Shown here piece after piece: positions 967 to 56,396 of a stretch of DNA of 64,000 nt. A program made the position numbers and the translations under genes. The stretch is from positions 96,001 through 160,000 of the IMG/VR virus record IMGVR_UViG_3300028603_000018. One strand, given 5' to 3'. The notes beneath the pieces are model-generated. The model had not been told where the DNA came from and did not search any database. It saw only the letters and a list, made by a program, of their open reading frames with translations. The DNA is from a virus (Duplodnaviria > Caudoviricetes). Position 1 is the first letter of the stretch. Every line of letters starts with the position of its first letter.

Positions 967-3228
967 ATGTCTGTGTCTAATCTAGACAAAGCATTTAATA
1001 TTAGTATTCTCTATCTAACACCATTGAATCTAAGAGGCTTAGGATTAATCGATACACTGGATACTTACGATGTAAATGGTGAGTTCAGTGATCGTGGTCT
1101 TTACTCTATTGATTACTTTGGTCCAGTAGGAGATCTACGACGTTCTCGTCGACTTGCATATATTGATATCAAGATGGAGGTTATTCATCCTCTTATCTAT
1201 AAATCCTTAGTAAAACTAAAAGGCTTTTACGAAGATATTATCCTAGGTAAGAAATATGCTATTTGGAATAAACTCACTAAAGACTTCGAACCAGCAGATG
1301 CATTAACTGGTCAAACTGGTTTTAATTTCTTTCTTAATCACTGGATGGATATTGATCTCGTTAGAAATAAGAGTACAGCTAGAAACGAGAGAGTTACTTT
1401 TATTGAGAATAATAAAAGTAAAGCACTTACTAATAAAATCCTAGTTATTCCAGCAGGTATTAGGGACATGACAGTAGGTGCAGATGGTAGACCAGTTAGT
1501 GATGAGATCAATAATATCTACCGTCGATTAATTGGGGTATCAAACACTATTACTGAAGCAGCTATTGAACACAACCCAGAACTCTTTGATAATTCTCGAT
1601 TACGATTACAATTAGTCTTTAATGAGTTATATGAGTATATTACCCAATTACTTAAAGGAAAAAAGAAACTCATTACAGGGAAGCTAACCTCACGTAGAAT
1701 CCATAATGGGACTTCAAACGTTATTAGTGCTTATATCCCTACAGTAAAGCGCTTAGGTGAGCCAGGATCTATCTCAGTTAATAATACCATTGTAGGATTA
1801 CAACAATTCTTAGTCTCTATTGGTCAAACAGCTAAGTATTATATTAAGAATGGTCCATTAAAAGAAGTATTCATCTCTCCTGACCTACCAGCTCGACTCA
1901 TTAACAAAAAGACACTAGAGCAAGAAGAAGTCGATATCTCTATTGAAGCTTATGATTACTGGATGTCAAATGAAGGTCTTGATAGAGTACTCAGTGAATT
2001 TGCTAATGGTAATATCAGACACCAGCCTGTTGAGATTGAAGATCATTATGTCGCTTTGATTTATAAAGGACCTGATAATACTTTTAAAATCTTCTACGAT
2101 ATTAGAGAATTACCTGCTAACTTCTCTAAGAAGTATGTTAGTCCTATTACGCTATTAGAACTCCTATACCTCTCTGTTTATGAGACTTCAGCACAATACC
2201 CAGCCTTCACTACTCGCTATCCCGTATCAGGAGATGGCTCAATCTATCCTTCTTTCTCTTATGTTAAAACAACAGTGAAGTCTGAGAAGAGATATCCTCT
2301 AAATGAAGTATGGCAAAAAGACGATACTCTACCTATTGCTTTTGAGTTCCCTTTACTTAATTCGAGTTTCTACGATACTCTGACTCCACACACTTCGAGG
2401 CTTGCTGGTCTCGGCGCTGATTATGATGGTGATAACGCCTTAGCCCTTATTTATAAGGGATAATTCAAGAAAAGTGTATAACACCTTATCCTAGTAGTAT
2501 GAAAGTCGTTAAAAACTTTTATAACTTATATAGATAATGTCGAAGCTTTTACTAATAAAAATACTCAAAGTAATTTTATTAACCATATACATTTTTCATT
2601 ATTATTCCTTATTTATATTACGTCACCTATTAGTAGAAATACTAATACAATAAACCTCTTTAATTGACGGGAAAAGACTGTTAAAGTCTATCTACCAAGC
2701 TATGCATTGGAAACAACATAGTGGCTGAACTAATCACTCAGGTAAGGTAATAAAGATAGAACTGGTTTAATCCGCAGCGAAGCTCCTAGAGATACTTTCT
2801 ATAAGTATACGGAGTGCGTTCAACGACTAATGAAAGGCGTGTGTTAATTATAACACTAAACCGAGTAAAGTAGCGCCTAGTGGTAGGGTGTGTAGATTGA
2901 GAATGGGTCTACACAGTAAAACCCTTTAAAGCGAAATGGGAGGCACCTGACTGCTATTGTTAGAATAGTAAAAGGTGAAGATATAGTCTGAGCGTCTAGG
3001 GAAAGCCTAGAGTAGTAGTTATCTTAACTACGGGTATAGATTAACGAGCTATACTGAACATAACTGAGAATGTCATTTAATGCTTTATATACCGATGAAG
3101 CAAAAGAAGAAATACGGAAATTCTTAACTGAACCTAGAGCATATTTAAATACTAATGGTGAATTAAGAATGAGTGCTTCTTTCCCCACTATTGATTTAGT
3201 ACTCTATAACCTAACTTCTAGGAAGTAG
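967..3228 (+). CDS. Virion RNA polymerase beta'-like catalytic subunit (phiKZ gp180-like); spliced from exons 967-2433 and 3067-3228, 542 aa
   Basis: Exon 1 ends in the catalytic motif LAGLGADYDGD. Exon 2 continues in frame as RMSFNALYTDEAKEEIRKFL...TSRK*, parallel to bacterial NADFDGDQM. Confidence 0.9.
2434..3066 (+). ncRNA. Group I intron (633 nt) in the vRNAP beta' gene
   Basis: P AATTGACGGGAA 2662-2673, Q AATCCGCAGC 2769-2778, R GTTCAACGACTA 2818-2829, S AAGATATAGTCT 2978-2989. The 5' exon ends in U (GGTGAT) and pairs with guide GTCACC 2622-2627. P2 is TATTAGTA-GAAA-TACTAATA. Terminal G is 3066, and removal restores the frame. Confidence 0.93.
2509..2599 (-). pseudogene. Decayed antisense GIY-YIG-like homing endonuclease N-terminus in the intron P1 loop
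   Basis: RBS AAGGA, then ATG 2599 giving MKNVY; after a frameshift, VNKITLSIFISKSFDII, which resembles the GIY-YIG pattern Y-x-I-x-N-K-I-x-G-K-x-Y-I-G-x-S-x-D-I. Confidence 0.4.
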
Positions 3229-3236
3229 AAAAAGAA

Positions 3237-6200
3237 ATGTTAATTTACGATACTTATTATAAACGCAGAGCTTCTTTTCGATTAGGTCAGATTGCTTCTC
3301 CTAGGAAAAATCCTTTAGAGACGATGGAAATGCCTAAAGGTTCCGTTTACCATTACTTAGGTGAAAGTGCTACACAAGTAGGTCCACCTGAAGATCTCTA
3401 CATCTATCGAGCAGTTAGTGATCCTATTCAAATGAATGTGGTCTCTAGTTATAGTACTGATTTTGAATGGAGAGGTAATCCTACTGTATTAGGTAGGAAT
3501 ATTCAATCTGATATTGCTAAGTACTTACGACTGCATCGACGCTATCGTCGTTTCCCTGAAGTCAGTAAGATCAAAGGTACACCTCATATTCAGTTACTTA
3601 TTAACTACGCTAACATTAATAAGAGTTATCGATATATCCAAAATCGATACTCTAGTTATAATGCTTGGTATAATAAGTTTGCTAGTGTATTAAGTAATGT
3701 TAATGAAGTAGCTACTAAGACTAATAGACAACAGTTCTTAATCTTTAGTTTACCTGAATTTATTCCTAGTGCTTCGCATCTACTCATAGCAGAAGGTCAA
3801 GCTGTTATTACAGGTAACTTATTAAATAGCTTTAGCTCTAATGAAAGTAGAGTTATTTTAGAGTTGTGGAAGTGGTTAAGTGAAGCTAGAACTAATTCAT
3901 TGTTTAATCTGATTAGTCCTCAGAACTACGATAAAGTCAACATCATCTTCCAGGACATGGGAGTATGGGTGGGTTATCGGTTAGATTCATTAAATAACTT
4001 TAGACTCCCTAGTAAGGAAGAATTAAAAGCTTATGAAGATGATCCTACTGGTAAAGTTGAGCCTAATACTAAAGGTATTCTACCTGACTTATTAAAACGT
4101 ACTTTCTTACGTGGATTAACTACTGTTACTAAGTTTAGGAATGGGGAGTTAATTGAAGAAGAAGAAGAACAAGATGTACTTGATGATGAGTTAGATGAAG
4201 AAGAAGATATTCAAGTACTCGATAAGGATGCTTCAGGTAATGCCGTTGTCTCTAGTCTGAAAAACATTAAAAAGAGTTTAGATGAAGCTGAAGCTTCTCG
4301 TGCTGAAAAAGAAGTCTTATCTCGTATTCAATCTATCGAACGAGAGTTAGAAAAAAGAAATGAGGCGAGTGACTTTATCAGTACTATCGATGGTATTGAT
4401 TTAGAAGAGTTTAGTAATCTCATTGATGAGGATCTTAGTGCTTTAGATAAAATCAATGAGAGATTGGTTTTAAATAAAGAAGTGGTGGGTCATTCTACGG
4501 TAGGTACTGGTTTAGGTGAACTAACTGAAAGAAATAAGAACCTACCTAATACCTTTGAAGATGGGTTAATGCGTATTGCTACAGACTATGCTGAAGCTGG
4601 TTTGTTATCTGCTACGGATTACCAACGCTTTGTTAGGCATAGTGAAGCTTATAAGTCAATTAAGATGCCTAATGGACAGACATTAGAAGAGTATATTCAG
4701 ATCGATAAGAAAGACTTAGAGATCGATTATAATAAACCCGTTCCTTCTGTTGATACTGTTAATGATCCTAGCTTGATTGGTTCTACAATGGTAGAGTTTA
4801 ACCGTAAGTATAATACGGAGCTTCTCTATAAAGACATTGCTAGGATGGTTCTAAATATGCAGTTCGGTGGCGTAGCTGTCACTAACATGAATATCTACAA
4901 GCAAGAAACTGTCTTAGGTAGTAATTACGTTTATGAAGTTAGGTTAGTTCCCGTAGATGGAGAGCCTGGTACGGTTCGCTTTACGATTCCAGAAGTATCT
5001 AAAGACGGTACATTTAGAATCAATGGTGTGAAGTATCGGTTTAGAACTCAGCAAGCGGCTCAATTACCTATTAAGAAAACAGCTCCGTATCAAGTAGCAT
5101 TAACAAGTTACTACGGGAAGCTCTTTATTAATCGAACACAAAGAAAGGTTAATGATTACGGTAGTTGGATTACTCGCTACATTAAAATGGAAGCATTAGA
5201 AGGGACAACAGATAAGATTCGTGATGTAGAGACCTTTCCTACTTTCAAAGCTAATGTTAAGCGTCCTAGAATCTTTACTATCTTAGCTCAGACTTTTAAA
5301 CAGTTCTCTGTTAAAGTAGATGCATTATCAGAAAGACTTTCTTTTGTTTTAGATGAAGACATCTTAAAAGAGAAAGACCCTACTACTTATAATGCTCTTG
5401 TAGATGAAGGGTTTATTCCTTGTGGTATTGTAGGTAATGATTTCTTAGTTGTTAATATTAACAATGAATTCTTTATCAATCGAAAAGAAGGTAAAGAGGA
5501 CATTGGTACTATTGAAACTATTTTAGACTTAGATATTCGAAAAGCACCTATCGAATATATTGAAGCAGGCATTAGTGGTAAAGACATCCCTGTTGGTTTC
5601 ATGTTAGGTTTAGAGATGGGTTTAGAGCAACTCATTGTCTTACTTCAACCTAGGATTCGACGTGTTCCTAAAGGTCAGTCTGTTAAACTTGAAGATGATG
5701 AGTATCGTTTAATTTTTGAAGATGAAACATTAGTCTTTAATAAAAACGATAAGACGGCTACTTTACTCTTAGCTGGCTTTACTAAGTTTCACCGTAGCCT
5801 ACGCCTTTATACAGTTAATGATTTCAATAGTGTTGCTGCTTATATTAACGTATTAGAAGAACATGGGATGACTTCCCGTATTGCTGCAAGTATTGATACG
5901 CTTAATAAACTCTTTATTGACCCTATCATTAGAGAGTTATTAGTAGATATGAATGAACCTACTCATTTTAGAGGCTTGCTACTGCGTTGTGCTGAGCTAT
6001 TGGTGGATGATTATGTCCCTGATGTAAAAGACCGTGTACGGGGCTATGAGAGGTTTGCAGGGGCTGTTTATAGTGAGCTAATCAAAGCTTATCGTGCTCA
6101 TCAGTTTAAACCTTCTCGTTTTAAGCAACCTATTGATATGGCTCCCTTTACTGTATTCAATAACATCAGTACTGATCCAGCTAAACTCTTAGTTCACGAT

Positions 6201-7998
6201 ATCAATCCAGTAGAAGACGCTAAGCAAATTGATGCTTTGTCTTATACAGGTTCAGGTGGTCGTAGTAGTCGTTCTATGACTAAAGAGACGCGTCTTTATA
6301 CTGATAAGGATCAAGGTCTAGTTTCTGAATCTACGGTTGATTCTGCTAAAGTAGCTATTAATAACTACAGTTCAGCAAAGCCTAAGTTAACTAGTGTACG
6401 TGGTACTTATGAGCAATTCAATTTAGAAGAAGATGGTGTAGGTAGCTTAATTAGTACTGCTGCCTCATTATCTCCTTACGTGCTGTACGATGATTAACAA
6501 TTAAATAATATTTGTATATTGTTTAACTAGTCCACTTAGTTAGTAATAACTAATGTGAATGCTTCTTAATTGCTGGGAAAGGCTTAGAGCTAAAGTAACC
6601 ACTGCGAGACGAAAGTCAAAGCCAAGGTTTGAAAATACTTTAGATTGCTCAATCAGCAGCGGAGATTCTACGTCTTATTATTTATAGTAAGATATGAATA
6701 GCGTTCAACGATCAATCCCTTATCAGGATGTAGGTCACAAGTGTGATCCAAACAGAAGCCTTCCTAATCACTAGGAAGAAGATATGATCTAGACATCTAG
6801 GGAAAGCCTAGAGCTGCAAGTAAAGTTGCGGGTTAGTCCTAACGAGACTAATTGAATACAATCGGGAAAAAGGGTCTCCTTTATCGGGGTCCAGCACGGT
6901 CATGGAATTGCATGTACAGGGTATACTGCTCCTGTAGTTAGGACAGGTAAAGAAGCTAGCTTAGCTCAACAAACTAGTGAAGTGTTTGCTAAAGCTGCTG
7001 AACAAGACGGTGAAGTTATCTCTGTTAAACCAGAAGGTATTATTGTTCGCTACGCAGATGGTAGTGAAGAAGGCTATCCTTGTGGGAAAGTCTTTGGTAA
7101 TAGTGCTTCATTATCTTTTCCTTTTAACATTGTAAGTAATGTTAGTAAAGGAGAGGTATTTAAAGCAGGAGATATTCTCACGTATAATACGGAGTTCTTC
7201 ACTAAAGATACATTAGCTAGAAATACTGTTGTCTGGAAGAATGCTGTGCAAGTAAACGTAGCTTTAGTTGAAGTACCTTCTACTTATGAAGATGCTTCAG
7301 CCATTACTCAACGCTTAGCTAGTAAACTTACTTCTAAGATCTCAGAACCTATTAACATCACTGTTCGGTTTAACCAAGCTATTCATGACTTAGTTAAAGT
7401 AGGTGATAAAGTTAAAGCTGATGACCATCTTTGTGTTATTGAAGATGAAGTTACAGCAGGTAGTGATCTTTTCGATCAGGACTCCTTAGATAACTTACGC
7501 ATTCTGCGCTCTCAAACACCTCGTGCTAAAGTCGATGGTGTTGTAGATAAGATCGAGGTCTTCTATAATGGCGAGCTTGAGGAGATGTCAGAATCATTAG
7601 CTGAAGTAGCGATGGCTGCTGATAAACGTTTAGCTAAAGAGTTATCTTCAGTAGGTAAGAAGCCCATGACAGGTTCTACCTTAGGAGAGAGCTATCGTAT
7701 TGAGGGTAATGTTTTACAGTTAGATGAACTTGTTATTCGTGTTCATGTTACTGAAGACAAAGGGATGGGTAATGGTGATAAAGCCGTATTTGCTAACCAG
7801 TTAAAAACTATTATCTCTGAAGTATTACCTGATCCTGTTCAAACAGAATCTGGCGTAGAGGTAGATGCTTTATTTGGTATTAAGTCAGTCGGTAACCGTA
7901 TCGTTAACTCACCTTACGATATTGGTATTGATGCTAGACTCATGACTAAAGCAACTGAGCGAGCTATTGCTGCTTATACCACTCCTATTAAAGGTTGA
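3237..7998 (+). CDS. Virion RNA polymerase beta-like subunit (phiKZ gp178-like); spliced from exons 3237-6494 and 6865-7998, 1463 aa
   Basis: Beta motifs include DGTFRINGVKY, SYTGSGG, GDKAVFANQLKTIIS and SVGNRI. The spliced junction SLSPYVLYDD|GKRVSFIGVQHGH parallels bacterial LIPFLEHDD-ANRALMG. Position 6865 is in frame with the 6982 ORF. Confidence 0.9.
6495..6864 (+). ncRNA. Group I intron (370 nt, no ORF) in the vRNAP beta gene
   Basis: P AATTGCTGGGAA 6568-6579, Q AATCAGCAGC 6651-6660, R GTTCAACGATCA 6703-6714, S AAGATATGATCT 6779-6790. P2 has a GTAA tetraloop. The 5' exon ends in U and terminal G is 6864. Confidence 0.93.
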
Positions 7999-8012
7999 TA
8001 TTAATTATAGTA

Positions 8013-8054
8013 GAAAGAGGTTCCTTTTATCAGGAGTCTCTTTCTTTTTTTTTT
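8013..8054 (+). terminator. Intrinsic terminator after vRNAP beta
   Basis: Imperfect stem GAAAGAGGTTCC/GGAGTCTCTTTC followed by T10. Confidence 0.7.
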
Positions 8055-8139
8055 AAGCCTTTAGAGGGTTTAGGTTAAATAAGTCTTTTAAACCTATGAG
8101 ATAATATAAACAGTCCCTTAGCTTAAGGATATTTTTAAA

Positions 8140-8352
8140 ATGAAGAAAGTAGATAGAGAACACACCACTCTCCAAACATTATCAACAGCTGTTGAATTTG
8201 GATTAGGTGTAGCTCAAGAAGTTTTAACAGGTAGTGACTTAGGTTCTTTCTTAAGTAAGAATGGTCGCACTAACCTAGCCCAACAAATGTTAACTGATAT
8301 TCAAACTAAATTTAATAAAGAATTAGGAGCTGCTCAATATGCTAAGCGATAA
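8140..8352 (+). CDS. Small hypothetical protein of the vRNAP/protease cluster
   Basis: RBS AAGGA, phage-like codon use, overlaps the next gene. Confidence 0.65.
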   Translation: MKKVDREHTTLQTLSTAVEFGLGVAQEVLTGSDLGSFLSKNGRTNLAQQMLTDIQTKFNKELGAAQYAKR

Positions 8353-9811
8353 AATTGTTAAAGCTAGTATTCCACTTACAGCTCTTTGGACTGAAAATGA
8401 TTTAGTAGCCACTGCATACGAAGGCTCTCCATTAGCTTTACTAATTCATCATCAATTAGAAAAGAATATTCAAAGTAATGTTTTTTATGCTTCAAATAAA
8501 GACTTTGGTAATTCTGATTTAGAAACTCGTTTAACGACTATTGCTAATAATCTAGCTAACATCGGTTCTCTCAATGGTGTTGAGTCTGTAACGGGTATTG
8601 ATACTAACCAAGTCTTAGATACGCATATTAGTGCTGCTGCTGGTAAGATTAAACAACATATCAGTATTATTAAAAACGTCGTTAAACCTGCTGTTATGGA
8701 TTTAATTGAACGTATTAATGCTGCTTTAAAATCCGTTACTAATGAATCGATCTTAGATGTAGAGATTATTCAGTTTGAAGTCCCTAAGAGTTTTTCTAAT
8801 AACTTCTTTGTAGCACCTCTTGGTAAGTACCAAGATAAGGATAATGCAATTCCTTATAAGTTAGTTGGTTTACCTAATTTAGACTGGACTACTTTAGTTG
8901 AGAAATTAGCGATTGGTGATTCTGAAGTTGATGACGAAAACTTAAGCTTTATTCTGTCTGCTGGTAAAGAAAACATCCAGCAACTATTTGATTCTGTTTT
9001 TGGTAATGGACAATCTCCAGTTAAAACTAATAAGAATATTGGTGATTTCTTAAAAGATAGTAAGTTTAACACCCAATACAACTTAGCGATGTATCTGTGG
9101 GCTAATAACTTTTTTGATAATCCAGTAGAAGGCACTAATGCTACCTTAATTGATTACAATAATCAATTAGCAGCTATTCGTGAAATGGCAGGTGCTAATT
9201 TACAGCGATTAGTACAAGTACATCAAAGTAACTTAGAAAGTAAAGTCTTAGTTAAAAGCTTTGGTGATGGTTATGTTGAAGTCTATTCCAACGTATATGA
9301 AGACTTTTTAGAAAATGGTGGAGTGCCAGAAGCATTACTGGGTCTGATCTACTCTGATAGCAAGTCTTATACGTACGATAATATCATTGCTCGTACTGCT
9401 GAATTAGAGCGTATTTGGAATACTCAAGTCGGTAGTCTTAAGCTCAATGAAAAAGCTCGTCGGGCTAACTTTATTTATCGTATTGCTCTAGCTTCGTTTC
9501 ATGAACAGATGTTAGAGGAGCAAGACGGACAAGCAGGACTGGATAATAACATCCTCTCTATTTTAGAGAAAGCACGTAATATTCTAGACGCTCTTCGTCC
9601 TGAAGAACTCAATAATATCACTGAAGTCTCTTTACTGTTAGAGTGTAGAGCGCGTTTTCCTAACACGGCTTCTGAGCAATTCTTACGAGATATTGTTGAT
9701 GTAGTGGCTGATTGTCCTGATACTGATGTAGAAGAAGCTGCTGCTGTAGCTACTCTGCGTTATATTACGACTTGGATCTCAAACCAACTCTCAGTTAAAT
9801 ACGCACGTTAA
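8339..9811 (+). CDS. Probable virion (head) structural protein
   Basis: 490-aa ORF lying between vRNAP beta and the protease, as in phiKZ-like phages. Confidence 0.6.
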   Translation: MLSDKIVKASIPLTALWTENDLVATAYEGSPLALLIHHQLEKNIQSNVFYASNKDFGNSDLETRLTTIANNLANIGSLNGVESVTGIDTNQVLDTHISAAAGKIKQHISIIKNVVKPAVMDLIERINAALKSVTNESILDVEIIQFEVPKSFSNNFFVAPLGKYQDKDNAIPYKLVGLPNLDWTTLVEKLAIGDSEVDDENLSFILSAGKENIQQLFDSVFGNGQSPVKTNKNIGDFLKDSKFNTQYNLAMYLWANNFFDNPVEGTNATLIDYNNQLAAIREMAGANLQRLVQVHQSNLESKVLVKSFGDGYVEVYSNVYEDFLENGGVPEALLGLIYSDSKSYTYDNIIARTAELERIWNTQVGSLKLNEKARRANFIYRIALASFHEQMLEEQDGQAGLDNNILSILEKARNILDALRPEELNNITEVSLLLECRARFPNTASEQFLRDIVDVVADCPDTDVEEAAAVATLRYITTWISNQLSVKYAR

Positions 9812-11552: not shown

Positions 11553-12233
11553 CTAATCAACGCGTTCAAAAACTGGTCTCCAACATCGGTATAATGTATA
11601 AGCACCACCACTATTAATGACATTAGTAGCACTTGCTTTGTCATAAGGTCTAATATCCGTAATACTTGGGGTGCTCCAGCCATAACCTATAATAAAAGCT
11701 TGATTCTCGTTATTAGCGTTTACTTCTCTACACCAAAAAGATTGCTCTCTAGCATTTACACTATTGGCTGCTAGATTAGCGTATTTTGGTCCTGTATAAG
11801 TATACCCCCAACCATTATATACGGAAGCTGATAAAATTGGTAAAAATAATCTGCAAAATTCACTATGGTTAGGTTCTAACTTCATTGCATTTACATAACT
11901 AGGTAGGCTATGGGTTTCATCACTTACTCTAATAGCCCTGCAAATATATTTTACACCAGCTATCTCTATCTCTACTCCATGGATGAGACCTCTGCTATTT
12001 AACGCGTTCCAAGTTACAGATTGATAAACGTTAGAACTGGGTATATATAATTGCTTATCATCTAAAGTAAAAGATAACCAACTACTACTATTTAAACTAG
12101 TTCCACCACTTAAACCAAAATGATTGACTAAGCTAGCGTTAGTCATTAAACCACCAACTTGACCATGATACATGTAAGGGACTTTTATCCTATCCCCTCC
12201 ATCTACTGTTTTTATTAATAGTTCTTTACTCAT
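11553..12233 (-). CDS. MSKELL-tagged protein with one WRPVLE-type virion domain
   Basis: Likely start is ATG 12233 (MSKELLIKT). Contains WLSFTLDDKQLYIP...CWRPVFE, the same domain as in the 19727 and 60577 ORFs. Confidence 0.7.
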   Translation of the reverse strand: MSKELLIKTVDGGDRIKVPYMYHGQVGGLMTNASLVNHFGLSGGTSLNSSSWLSFTLDDKQLYIPSSNVYQSVTWNALNSRGLIHGVEIEIAGVKYICRAIRVSDETHSLPSYVNAMKLEPNHSEFCRLFLPILSASVYNGWGYTYTGPKYANLAANSVNAREQSFWCREVNANNENQAFIIGYGWSTPSITDIRPYDKASATNVINSGGAYTLYRCWRPVFERVD

Positions 12234-12302: not shown

Positions 12303-13247
12303 TTACCACGTAGCTAAATCAATACCTTCTGGCGGTGTATACTCAAACCATTTATTTTGATAGGCGATTGGAGATGATGTACTGCCGCCATATGTGTATA
12401 TTTTATTATTATAGTGAAATAATAATGGAGAACTTAGTGGTTTACCATTAAGGTGAGGATGTACTGCATCATTTCTTAATGTTATATCTGTGAAAGTTAA
12501 AGTAGTTAAATCTAATTTAGTGAAGTTACTATCAAACAAATATAAGTTCTTACCGACTTGAACGTAACCGCAATTATTTTGATTAATCGCATTAGTAAAA
12601 TTAATAGCCGTAAAAGTTTCAGTTAGATGATTAAATAGATAACCTTCCCTAGTAGAAGCAGAGGCTCCCGTTCCTAAGAGATAAAAATCATTACCTAACC
12701 TAGCATTTACAGAAGGTTGAAAAAAATAAGGCCATTCTGTTAATGTAGTAAAGGTAAGACTAAACGTATCTAGATTTAACTTAGCTATTCTTTTTAATGC
12801 GCTGTTAAAGAGATATAAAATATTTCCAAATTGCACACCAGGAACATAAGAAAAGTCTCCTAAACCAACTATTTGTCTGGTTGTCAGTTGTGCTGTATTT
12901 AAATCGATTTCATAGTAAGTATTAGGGGTATAGACTCTGGGGTATGTTAATGTTGAATCGTCATCTGTTATTAGCCTAGAACCACTGAGTGCTTTACCTG
13001 TTCCTTCAGGGTCGTTAAAGAAACTCCAGTTATTTGATGGGATGTGATAAATTGATACGTATCTAGGGGGATCTATGCCATAACCCCTATACCCTCCTCG
13101 CATCACTAAATATTCACCTTTACTCCATGAGAGTGTTATAGAAGTACCTGTACATATTGAGTCAGGACTGCTTTGCATCTCAGTAGCTTGACGCCACCCC
13201 CCCTCCATCTTGTTAGATGAGGTGGTTATTAAGAATTCTCTACTCAT
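12303..13247 (-). CDS. MSREFL-tagged Kelch/beta-propeller-like protein
   Basis: Blade-like motifs GNILYLF, GNDFYLLG, GKNLYLF and NNKIYTYGG; ends WFEYTP. Confidence 0.7.
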   Translation of the reverse strand: MSREFLITTSSNKMEGGWRQATEMQSSPDSICTGTSITLSWSKGEYLVMRGGYRGYGIDPPRYVSIYHIPSNNWSFFNDPEGTGKALSGSRLITDDDSTLTYPRVYTPNTYYEIDLNTAQLTTRQIVGLGDFSYVPGVQFGNILYLFNSALKRIAKLNLDTFSLTFTTLTEWPYFFQPSVNARLGNDFYLLGTGASASTREGYLFNHLTETFTAINFTNAINQNNCGYVQVGKNLYLFDSNFTKLDLTTLTFTDITLRNDAVHPHLNGKPLSSPLLFHYNNKIYTYGGSTSSPIAYQNKWFEYTPPEGIDLATW

Positions 13248-21326: not shown

Positions 21327-22173
21327 ATGAGTAAAGATTTATTGATAGGAGTAGGTGGAGGGGAGGGGGTAGCACCTCCTGGACAGGTTCTTTGGGGAGT
21401 AAATATTGTCAACTCTTACTACGGTCCTAATGGTTTATTCCCCTTTGTTGTTCCTCAAGGCGTTTATTCTATTTGTGCTGTCACAGTGGGTAGGGGTGGT
21501 TATGGACCGGGACATACGAGTGGCAGGACTGCCGCCGGAGGTGGTGGAGGATTATCCTATCGTAATGATATTCCAGTGACTCCTGGCGAAACATTGACTA
21601 TTGACTATTGACTTCAATGCCGAACATGTAGGTATTCGTAGAGATGCTGAATGGTTATGCTATGCTCAATGCAGTGCTGCTAGTAGAACGGGCGGTTTAG
21701 GTGGTAAAAGCCTCTCTGTTATACATACTGGTGGTGGAAATGGTGGTCTCGGCGCGAATAATACAGGCAGTACAGTCCAGCGTTTAGGAGGTGGTGGAGC
21801 TGGGGGGTATACTAGTAACGGCGGAAATGGTGGTGGACATAACACTACTCAGACCACTAGTTTTGATGGTGGTAGTGGAGGTAACTATAATGCTTCATTC
21901 AACACATGTTCTGGTGGATTTGGTGTAACCTTACTGGGATCACGCGTACCTGGATCTAATGGAGTTCCTGTAGGCTCTCCTTACCCTCCTAATGTGAATA
22001 ATACTTCCACTGCACTACGTAACGCTCCTCCTAGAGGTGGTGGTAGATATGGTGGTGGTGCTGCTGTTATTTATAATACTACCTCTGGTAATGTGAATGG
22101 TCAGTCTTCTGGTGGTGTAAGAATTATTTGGGGTGAAGGTAGGTCTTACCCTTATAATGCTTTAGATGTATAA
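21327..22173 (+). pseudogene. MSKDLL-tagged glycine-rich adhesin-like protein, frameshifted at (ATTGACT)3
   Basis: The 94-aa and 190-aa ORFs join into a single 279-aa protein (...VTPGETLTIDFNAEH...) if one heptamer is removed. Confidence 0.8.
21593..21613. repeat. Tandem heptamer (ATTGACT)3
   Basis: Copies at 21593, 21600 and 21607. Confidence 0.95.
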
Positions 22174-22283: not shown

Positions 22284-23109
22284 TTATTCTTCAGGTGTGT
22301 ATTCCCAAATCCTAGCTTCTGGTACATCACCTATTACTATGAAACTATAGAAGTATATCTTTCCGTTTAATACACAAGGAAAGCAACTAGTAGACGATAA
22401 CCACATATTAAAAGGATCAGGAACAGGTATTTCAGTTACTTTATTTGTAACATCATTATACTTATAGAAAGAAGCACCAATAGTACTATTACCAGCTATG
22501 AAATAAATATCATCACCTAACGAACATCCTCTTCCCCATACACCACCGCCAGCATCATTAAACTCCCATTCCTCATCTAGCTCAATATACTCAATTGTTT
22601 CATCTAATAAATTATACTTAGATATTAATTTAATTCTATCAGGCTTAGTTAAATCTACGCGGGGTAAAATACTATATATGTAATTTTTATGCAGAACTCT
22701 TAATACAGGGTTTCTGGGCATAATTATATTTTTATATACTTTAGTATTAGTGCTTAGATTAACTACATCCATAACTTGATCACTTATCGCGTATAAATGA
22801 TTATCAAACACAAAACCATTCCAACTGGGTAAGGTAAATGGATTTGTTAATGCTAAAGATGAAATATGATCTGAAGCATAAGGTTTGATTTTAAGCATTC
22901 CTACGTTAGCTGTAGTCCCACCAATATAACCACCTAATGAATAAATAAACTCACCATCAGTAACAACTCCATACCTATTTCTAGTAAGTAATTGAGTTAT
23001 TGACCAAGCTATCCTCAGATAAATTCTTCTTGATATTGGATCGATGATGAAGTATTTAACACTACCACTCTTCAATCTCGTGAGAACTTATTAATATTTC
23101 TTTAGACAT
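22284..23109 (-). pseudogene. MSKEIL-tagged Kelch-like protein, frameshifted near the 5' end
   Basis: ATG 23109 gives MSKEILISSHEIEEW*. The Kelch body (FIYSLGG, DIYFIAG, GKIYFY, WEYTPEE) is in another frame; the span is 826 nt = 3n+1. Confidence 0.7.
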
Positions 23110-41448: not shown

Positions 41449-41456
41449 CATGTCAT

Positions 41457-41489
41457 AAATAAGAGAGCTAAATGCTCTCTTATTTTTTT
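41457..41489 (+). terminator. Intrinsic terminator (hairpin family)
   Basis: AAATAAGAGAGC...GCTCTCTTATTT followed by a T run. Confidence 0.75.
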
Positions 41490-41509
41490 CTTTAGAAAAA
41501 AGGTCAGTA

Positions 41510-42179
41510 ATGAGTAAGGAACTGCTATTAATTAGTTCTACCCCCCCCCTCCCCTCCAGGCATATTTACTAAGTTAAAACCTGCTACTGACGTAAGATTC
41601 CATCTCCAGTCAGTTGATGGTGTAATCAAAGATGTCAGTTCTTATAACCATGTTATTAATAATAGTGGACATATTACTGTCGATAGTGAAGGGTTTATTA
41701 ATAACGGTAACACATCAGGCTTCTTAGAAATATCAAGTGCTAATTTTCCTTCTCTAATGCAAGACTTTACAGTAGAGATGAGAGTTAAAATTGCAGATTT
41801 ATCTAAACTATATCACCAAATGGTGGGTAACTGGACTAGTAGGAACTTTCAATTTACTTACCGTGGGGTTAGTGGTAATTATTTTGGATTTGAAGATACG
41901 CCTGGTTGGGTTATTTCCCCTTATAGTCCTGAATTAAATACTTATATGCATATAGCATTTGTAAGACATAATAATGTTTTCTTTTGTTATAAGAATGGAG
42001 TTAAAGCTCAGTTAAGTCGTTTACCTACAGACGAGGTTAGAAGAACTGAGAATATCAAGATATTCCAAGTTTATGGTAGTACAGGTTATTCCTTGATAGG
42101 CGGGTTGTATGATGTAAGATTTTCCCAGAGTGCTGTATATACTGATAACTTTGAAATCAACCCTTTACCCTTAGTCTAG
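41510..42179 (+). pseudogene. MSKELL-tagged LamG/concanavalin-like protein, frameshifted at a C9 tract
   Basis: ATG 41510 gives MSKELLLISSTPP... Losing one C joins it to PPGIFTKLKPATDVRFHLQ...DFTVEMRV...HIAFVR...DVRFS, a 222-aa protein; the paralog at 55725 is 223 aa. Confidence 0.82.
41541..41549. repeat. C9 homopolymer at the frameshift site
   Basis: TCTA-CCCCCCCCC-TCCCCTCC. Confidence 0.95.
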
Positions 42180-42194
42180 TGCAGTTCACTATAT

Positions 42195-42233
42195 GTCATA
42201 AATAGGAGATCCTTTTGAGATCTCCTATTATGC
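42195..42233. repeat. Hairpin-family element, 39/39 identical (inverted) to 56875-56913
   Basis: Direct sequence comparison. Confidence 0.9.
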
Positions 42234-55724: not shown

Positions 55725-56396
55725 ATGAGTAGAGAACTTCTAATAACTTCCTCCTTAGTTGATGGGTGGGGTAGTGAGATAGTGGATGAATTCACTAATT
55801 TTTATTTAACAGTACGGGATGGTCAGATAATCGATCTTATTAATCCTTCTAATTATGTAAATATCATAGGTACTGGGATTAGTACATCAGGTATAGAGAT
55901 TGTTAATACGACACGCTCTGGTTCTGGTATAGAAGTTCCTTCTGCGGCTTTTAATGTAACCTCATTAGAGAGTTCTACAGTGGAGTTCTGGGTTTATTTT
56001 ACTAACCCAATAGCTGAGCTTTATGATCAAATGTTAGGTCAGTGGGGGAGCGGAGCAAATAGCACATTTCAATTTTGTGTACTAGATTCTTATCTTGCTA
56101 TAGCACAGGCTAGACCAGGTAACTCTATTAGTACTTTTAGAAGAATACCTAATACTTGGATGCATGTAGCTTATGTGAACCCCGCTGGTGGCGGCAATAT
56201 GGTTATCTATGTAAATGGAGTTTCAGAGCAACTAGATAGACGTTGGACAGTTTCACCTAATTTGAATATTCCTATGTCTTTATTGAAGGTATATGGACAA
56301 AATGGATTTAGCTTATTAGGTAGGATAGCTAAAATGAGAATCTCCACCATTGCTAGGTATACAGAGAATTTCGTACCTAATTATGGAATGTATTGA
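55725..56396 (+). CDS. MSRELL-tagged LamG/concanavalin-like protein (intact)
   Basis: STVEFWVY, NTWMHVAYV, IYVNG and GRIAKMRISTIARYTENFVP. Confidence 0.8.
   Translation: MSRELLITSSLVDGWGSEIVDEFTNFYLTVRDGQIIDLINPSNYVNIIGTGISTSGIEIVNTTRSGSGIEVPSAAFNVTSLESSTVEFWVYFTNPIAELYDQMLGQWGSGANSTFQFCVLDSYLAIAQARPGNSISTFRRIPNTWMHVAYVNPAGGGNMVIYVNGVSEQLDRRWTVSPNLNIPMSLLKVYGQNGFSLLGRIAKMRISTIARYTENFVPNYGMY

Follow-up and report, generated by a model that had tools for sequence, protein, structure and literature searches.

The LamG locus and its reading frames

The DNA analysed here (the window, 64,000 nt) covers positions 96,001-160,000 of a 244,062-bp contig (C90, 35.8% GC), and carries at 41510-42179 a gene whose start and body lie in different reading frames on either side of a run of nine cytosines. 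The features of the locus are listed below in window coordinates.

41450..41490 (+): upstream intergenic element, consisting of the motif ATGTCATAAATAAGAGA, a hairpin with a 12-bp stem (41457-41485) and a T run; terminator-like
41510..41542 (+): shared N-terminal tag MSKELLLISST, codons 1-11, by translation; an MS[KR][DE]xL start is found on ten genes of the contig
41510..41572 (+): 20-codon product MSKELLLISSTPPLPSRHIY of the present state, from the frame-0 translation, with its TAA stop at 41570-41572
41541..41549 (+): C9 homopolymer, the frame-setting tract, spanning codons 11-14 and thus within the first 15 codons
41550..42179 (+): LamG/concanavalin-A-like body, read in the +1 frame and open over all 209 codons, from translation, Pfam, codon usage and a structure model
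41757..42179 (+): 140-aa ORF (P0003), the only one to possess a start codon and the version annotated in public assemblies, lacking the first six beta-strands
42193..42232 (no strand assigned): second copy of the motif (ATGTCATAAATAGGAGA) with a hairpin, between the LamG gene and a convergent 753-aa gene, from sequence comparison
55725..56396 (+): intact LamG paralog of 223 aa that carries the tag (31% identity), followed only by short G runs (G3, G4), from translation and alignment

Read directly, the locus runs ATG AGT AAG GAA CTG CTA TTA ATT AGT TCT ACC CCC CCC CTC ... TAA, the nine cytosines being preceded by an A at 41540 and followed by a T. This bears out an earlier examination made from the letters alone (the sequence-only reading), which had placed a C9 tract at 41541-41549 behind MSKELLLISST. 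After the tag, frame 0 continues as PPLPSRHIY up to the TAA, and the +1 frame is open for 209 codons from 41550 to its stop at 42177-42179, in agreement with the earlier claim that the remainder of the frame is free of stops. The first ATG, GTG or TTG of the +1 frame lies at 41757, which leaves 140 aa as the only conventional ORF. When one CCCC is read as a single proline, as would happen at C8 or after a +1 shift, tag and body form an unbroken protein of 222 aa (MSKELLLISSTPPSPPGIF...). By arithmetic, C11 also restores the frame and C10 does not, and either C8 or C11 joins the tag, a Pro-rich linker (TPPSPPG) and the LamG body in one protein of 222 or 223 aa. Tract length in this way toggles between a truncated and a full-length product (20 aa at C9, 222 aa at C8), as at a slipped-strand locus, and the run is a G/C homopolymer of at least about 7 residues within an ORF and near its 5′ end, as at a contingency locus. 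The continuous protein predicted earlier for C8 or C11, with 222 aa at C8, is thus recovered by translation and arithmetic, and the paralog at 55725 is indeed one residue longer (223 aa).

The +1-frame body matches the Pfam family PF13385 (Laminin_G_3) with 35.7 bits, above the curated cut-off of 27.6 (E 1.2e-8), and its AlphaFold2 model is a beta-sandwich (pLDDT 78, pTM 0.79), so that it combines a profile match above threshold with the beta-sandwich jelly-roll fold of the LamG superfamily. A profile built from the body and its paralog finds 3065 relatives, which are mostly domains of large multi-LamG proteins. In Foldseek, the model matches lectin-like jelly rolls with a probability of 1.0 and TM-scores of 0.65-0.71 at 10-15% identity, including domain 4 of the arabinanase AbnA and the lectin-like subdomain of clostridial neurotoxin binding domains. 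As these are generic lectin-like jelly rolls, with a likeness of fold only, a function drawn from the top matches was set aside. An Rfam scan of the LamG locus returned no RNA family.

Since Met70 comes after the first six strands of the model (residues 15-61), the 140-aa product is, according to the model, unable to fold into a LamG domain. The C9 state ends translation after 20 codons and the 140-aa fragment is predicted to be domain-incompetent; hence, the gene is off in this assembly. The body itself has a codon-usage score of 0.32 in frame, compared to -0.77 and -1.36 in the other two frames, which is typical for genes of this phage (0.40 +/- 0.10), and the chance of 209 open codons is ~1e-11 at the out-of-frame stop frequency of the genome (11.3%). 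With an intact body and normal codon usage, the lesion should therefore be recent, reversible or bypassed. The sequence-only reading had named the first two of these options, which both observations uphold; bypass has to be added as a third.

The genes adjoining the LamG gene match PhiKZ_VTX (gp28) and DUF7193, and the identity of the DUF7193 protein with proteins from cultured phiKZ-like phages (of Burkholderia, Ralstonia, Xanthomonas and Pseudomonas) does not exceed 42%. Judged by these matches and identities, the contig is that of an uncultured phiKZ-like jumbo phage. It sits in a 109-contig bacterial assembly in which the other large contigs have ~65% GC. Six further contigs of 37-40% GC and 20-145 kb (C38, C39, C57, C75, C85 and C87), which may be other phages or a second organism, hold no MSKELL-type tag gene. 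Because both ends of the contig (1-80 and 243983-244062) run into collagen-like GXY-coding repeats, the contig break probably falls within a repetitive gene, in a genome that is circularly permuted. Public data include a version of the phage contig with 249,759 bp, which is known, like contigs of 210,701 and 94,899 bp, from protein look-ups.

The LamG gene is flanked on both sides, at 41450 and 42193, by a motif (ATGTCATAAATA[A/G]GAGA) with a hairpin, and the two copies bracket it as a cassette. The upstream copy, which is terminator-like, closes the transcription unit of a 562-aa gene 20 nt before the LamG start. The same element of ~40 nt, the motif ATGTCATAAATA with a hairpin, is dispersed in intergenic positions: in addition to window positions 41450-41466 and 42193-42209, copies lie at 5461-5498, 108258-108291, 152875-152913, 188085-188124 and 225441-225484 of the contig, and it recurs beside other genes that share the tag. 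Its role may be that of a terminator, a promoter or a recombination site.

In the one relative compared at the DNA level (L003, IMGVR_UViG_3300028603_000070, positions 6000-8500), a copy of the 562-aa gene with 70% identity is present and the LamG gene is missing; the junction holds one hairpin element, and the 753-aa gene is inverted. The LamG gene is thus dispensable and, since it also lies between two flanking elements, an accessory cassette; the missing gene and the flipped neighbour mark the junction as a rearrangement point. This 52.7-kb record contains no tag gene and no G/C run of at least 6. Such an arrangement is also what would be expected of a recently dead accessory gene, in which a single slippage was fixed in the lineage and the frame has no regulatory role, the body being as yet undecayed: the gene is absent beside a neighbour 70% identical, and the cassette sits between its two element copies like a losable insertion. 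However, the 209 codons of the body hold no second lesion, and their codon usage is normal.

A family of ten tagged genes and the placement of their tracts

Ten genes of the contig open with MS[KR][DE]xL, and they are labelled A to J as follows (coordinates, where given, are those of the window).

Gene A: G6 tract; off in this assembly, a -1 shift being needed
Gene B: C10 tract, Kelch body; on (in frame)
Gene C: Gly-rich body; no tract
Gene D, 11553..12233 (-): tag, G4, 226 aa; intact
Gene E, 12303..13247 (-): tag, G7 at 13197-13203, Kelch-like, 314 aa; in frame
Gene F, 21327..22173 (+): tag, Gly-rich body, split into 94 + 190 aa by three copies of ATTGACT (21593-21613)
Gene G, 22284..23109 (-): tag, a stop after 15 codons, and 267 codons of Kelch-like body that continue in the +1 frame
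Gene H: the LamG gene with the C9 tract; off
Gene I, 55725..56396: the LamG paralog; intact
Gene J: G10 tract; on

The linker behind the tag is Gly- or Pro-rich in all members. Genes H and B share a cassette (AGTTCTAC followed by C9 or C10) with 83% identity over ~51 nt, including 11 nt before the ATG, despite which their bodies (LamG and Kelch, respectively) are unrelated. Sister bodies match the Pfam families Kelch and Gly_rich_2, and their PHROGs are named virion structural protein or tail fiber assembly. From these domain types and PHROG names, from which alone virion location and receptor binding are drawn, the LamG product is probably an accessory, virion-borne binding protein of the phiKZ-like jumbo phage. 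The type of body found in genes A and D also forms the C-terminus of larger proteins with tail-fibre-like repeats (..RLHDGSTPGGYEIVG..) in the IMG/VR jumbo-phage contigs L021, L022 and L024 (~1050-1900), which supports a role as a receptor-binding tip for bodies of this type. Distant homologues of this body in IMG/VR also start with MNELLLS.., MKEQLLI.. or MSEILLPPPPDSF.., although such tag-like starts occur in few of them and long tracts in none. A match of gene B to PS119XW lies inside a larger protein and was ruled out as a match of the tag.

The runs are not scattered at random over the genome. The 244,062-bp contig contains three G/C runs of at least 9 in all, compared to none in 40 third-order Markov simulations, which substantiates the earlier remark that a long C run is conspicuous in this AT-rich DNA. 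All three lie 30-34 nt behind the ATG of a tag (binomial P ~1e-8). When the threshold is lowered to 6, five of the 15 G/C runs on the contig fall 30-44 nt behind a tag ATG (P ~3e-10), and a run of 6-10 is found at the equivalent position in half of the ten tag genes (G6, G7, C9, C10 and G10). Within the window, C7 or longer occurs at two places only. The codons that build the runs are rare, with CCC making up 8.4% of the Pro codons and GGG 8.0% of the Gly codons, and only two CCC-CCC pairs exist in the 54,796 codons of long ORFs. The tracts are over-represented against both base composition and codon usage, as contingency loci are, and both their location and their make-up speak for selection on the nucleotide sequence itself. 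For the LamG gene, a run of rare codons at a site that is also occupied by runs in four sister genes argues against an accidental lesion in a dead gene.

In this assembly, four of the ten genes are out of frame, and one of the four (gene G) is left without a repeat, which in turn would fit a LamG gene that has recently died. The stop of gene G lies at 23067-23065, and its break (TGG TAG) falls where paralogs carry TGGGG or a G run; no repeat is left there, as if a run had collapsed. Gene G may be locked off, or it may start at a TTG at 23075.

States of the family in a near-identical phage and the candidate switch

The 210,701-bp contig belongs to a near-identical phage: in exact-sequence protein look-ups, the 562-aa neighbour of the LamG gene is identical at 560 of its 562 residues, and the large conserved and structural proteins are intact and identical between the two assemblies. 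Three members of the tag family nevertheless differ. As gene calls rather than DNA, gene B appears there as 268 aa from Met36, without the tag and identical at 268/268 residues, and gene E as 291 or 267 aa (from Met23 or later), also without the tag. Gene F is fused, with 279 aa, and reads ..ETLTIDFNAEH.. at the junction, which is the exact prediction for two copies of ATTGACT, compared to three copies here; judged by this junction, the heptanucleotide repeat of gene F acts like the homopolymer tracts of its sisters. At the level of gene calls, genes B, E and F are hence in opposite states in the two near-identical phages, so the family varies in its on/off state at the repeats. A search for close variants of gene B returned the 268-aa form only.

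For the LamG gene itself, the picture is one-sided. In a homologue search, the only entry was the truncated call of 140 aa, which occurs on two contigs; the "on" form of the gene, the read-through product expected at C8, is absent from a collection of ~15 billion proteins. Likewise, no "on" form of gene A (G6) is on record in the protein collection. Together with gene G, which is broken and without a repeat, this means that some genes of the family decay or remain off. No match to the locus or the LamG body was found by blastn and tblastn among 50,697 phage records, and neither IMG/VR scans with the LamG body, the tag-plus-tract pattern and the two-copy junction of gene F, nor two JGI metagenome scans and a GTDB genome-contig scan, returned anything. 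The same holds for 112 bacterial genomes from the genus, family and class of the host, with no matches, near-identical records possibly having been withheld from the collections searched.

An error of assembly or consensus, with a true C8 or C11 or with a mixed population from which C9 was picked, has to be considered for any such tract, as homopolymers are a classic site of consensus errors and DNA of 65% and 36% GC is mixed in the 109-contig assembly to which the contig belongs. We consider it improbable. The same truncated 140-aa call is present on two contigs, long genes elsewhere on it are unbroken, and no gene is disrupted by an A/T run of 10 on the jumbo-phage contig. A screen of the contig for long frames without a start gave few, of which one is an intron exon and two are without features of the tag family; startless frames elsewhere are explained by introns or by the family repeats. 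Group I introns (Rfam RF00028) lie at window positions 2605-3012 and 6508-6813 (+), with 60.8 and 65.6 bits, and the open frame at 6856-7995 has no start because it is the exon behind the second of them. A general indel error is unlikely, since the large genes are intact and identical between the assemblies and a change in the copy number of a 7-nt repeat is no homopolymer miscall. Moreover, a mixed population would itself amount to phase variation.

Recoding is another way in which the C9 allele could yield the full-length protein. A +1 slip of tRNA-Pro on CCC_C (41546-41549), or the loss of one C by RNA polymerase, would give the TPPSPPG linker, and C9 would then be a low-level "on" state by design. 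The shift that is needed is indeed +1, and a CCC followed by a C permits perfect re-pairing, as frameshift sites require; CC[C/U]-[C/U] is documented as +1-prone for tRNA-Pro (PMC4519876). However, the A-site codon is CUC and not a stop, and no Shine-Dalgarno-like sequence lies upstream, so that the locus has no stimulator of this kind, and the reported levels of slippage reach only a few per cent. In addition, gene B is in frame at C10 with the common cassette, and the out-of-frame layout is therefore not conserved. The other broken members need other shifts (-1 for gene A, a 7-nt change for gene F), and the differences between assemblies indicate a change at the level of DNA. Recoding as the purpose of the tract thus appears highly improbable.

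The dead gene is the main rival, and it differs from a switch only in whether an "on" allele still circulates and is selected. In its favour, the truncated form is the only one on record (on two contigs), with no "on" form among the ~15 billion proteins. Against it, the states of sister genes differ between near-identical phages, and so the lesions at the family repeats are not all fixed. Together with the undecayed body and the shared position of the runs, this leads us to regard a gene that has simply died as unlikely.

As one of a family of tagged genes with slippery repeats at the junction, the LamG gene is likely a mutational switch that is set to off. The C9 tract would accordingly be a slipped-strand contingency tract between the shared tag and the LamG body, a reading to which we assign a probability of roughly 0.55. 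Polymerase slippage during the replication of phage DNA would alter the length of the run at a high rate, and the phage population would hold particles with and without the LamG protein. Each tract-bearing sister gene would switch independently, which would give the particle a varied binding repertoire. The off state may leak, by tRNA-Pro +1 slippage on CCC_C or by slippage of RNA polymerase. We infer the switching of the LamG gene, its rate and its reversibility, as well as the virion location and binding role of the product. For reversible switching, the ground is analogy with the sister genes, because no variation in tract length is on record for the LamG gene, of which only the 140-aa call is found. 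The sequence-only reading had proposed an ON/OFF switch for a lectin-like protein. The anatomy of the locus, the LamG fold, five tract-bearing members of the tag family and three sisters in the opposite state speak for it; the LamG gene itself, with only a truncated 140-aa call and a relative (L003) that does not have the gene, does not.

Taken alone, the LamG gene is a modest finding, an intact lectin gene parked in an off state. If the switch is real and extends to the whole tag family, a single genome sequence would not define the host range of such phages, which would instead belong to the population, and it would be wrong to discard "frameshifted" small genes in jumbo-phage assemblies as pseudogenes or errors. 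In that case, the short tag would become a candidate for a portable signal that attaches cargo to the particle. A wider reading, which we hold tentatively and at somewhat less than even odds, is that at least five independent hypermutable switches, together with the 7-nt repeat, at the junction of a docking tag and interchangeable lectin, Kelch or Gly-rich bodies make up a combinatorial "phasome" of virion adhesins, by which a nucleus-forming jumbo phage would hedge its bets on host range. Each burst would then release particles with different sets of binders. We know of no description of such a bet-hedging device in phiKZ-like phages.

Comparison with known systems

In bacteria, contingency loci carry poly-G/C tracts near the 5′ end of ORFs, as in Neisseria, Haemophilus, Campylobacter and Helicobacter. 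The LamG locus resembles them in having a run in the first 15 codons, an on/off state set by the reading frame, an off allele that is intact, and a family of surface-type binders. Unlike these loci, it is carried by a virus that replicates with its own enzymes.

Among phages, hypermutable polyG tracts were reportedly found by Sorensen et al. in 2021 (Cell Rep 35:109214) in virion and receptor-binding genes of Campylobacter Fletchervirus phages. To our knowledge, it is only in Campylobacter phages that repeat-driven on/off switching of phage host-binding genes has been demonstrated by experiment. Common to both systems are phage-encoded G/C homopolymers inside the ORFs of probable host-binding proteins, several tract genes per genome, and a tract length that sets the frame, from which mixed populations are expected. 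The present case differs in its carrier, a phiKZ-like jumbo phage (of the nucleus-forming type) with 36% GC. It also differs in that the tracts lie at one fixed site, between a shared tag of 7-11 residues and interchangeable LamG, Kelch or Gly-rich bodies, and in that C and G runs are both used, with one member having a 7-nt repeat instead.

Within the phiKZ-like group, gp298 of phiKZ is a Kelch-domain virion protein of low abundance on which adsorption to some wild Pseudomonas strains depends (bioRxiv 10.1101/2025.11.23.690004). Like the product of the LamG gene, it is a small, non-essential accessory protein of the lectin/Kelch type that is encoded away from the tail genes, and its role in host-specific adsorption is of the kind proposed here for the tag family. 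It differs in being a Kelch protein, whereas gene H encodes a LamG body, and no repeat switch is reported for gp298. In a tblastn search of gene B against cultured phages, phiKZ was not among the matches listed. The example of gp298 shows that small accessory binders matter in phiKZ-like phages.

A +1 shift of tRNA-Pro on CC[C/U]-[C/U] occurs at ~1% in an E. coli reporter (PMC4519876), and further papers deal, at least in part, with non-programmed tRNA-Pro +1 frameshifting on CCC-C (PMC7577736, PMC8324841). The tract of the LamG gene is similar in offering CCC_C with perfect +1 re-pairing in the direction that is needed. It is different in that the known levels are ~1% or a few per cent, in that no stimulator is visible at the LamG gene, and in that the layout is not conserved in gene B. 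Compared to these systems, the novelty lies in the carrier (a phiKZ-like jumbo phage) and in an architecture that joins a short shared tag, a repeat at the junction and interchangeable binding bodies.
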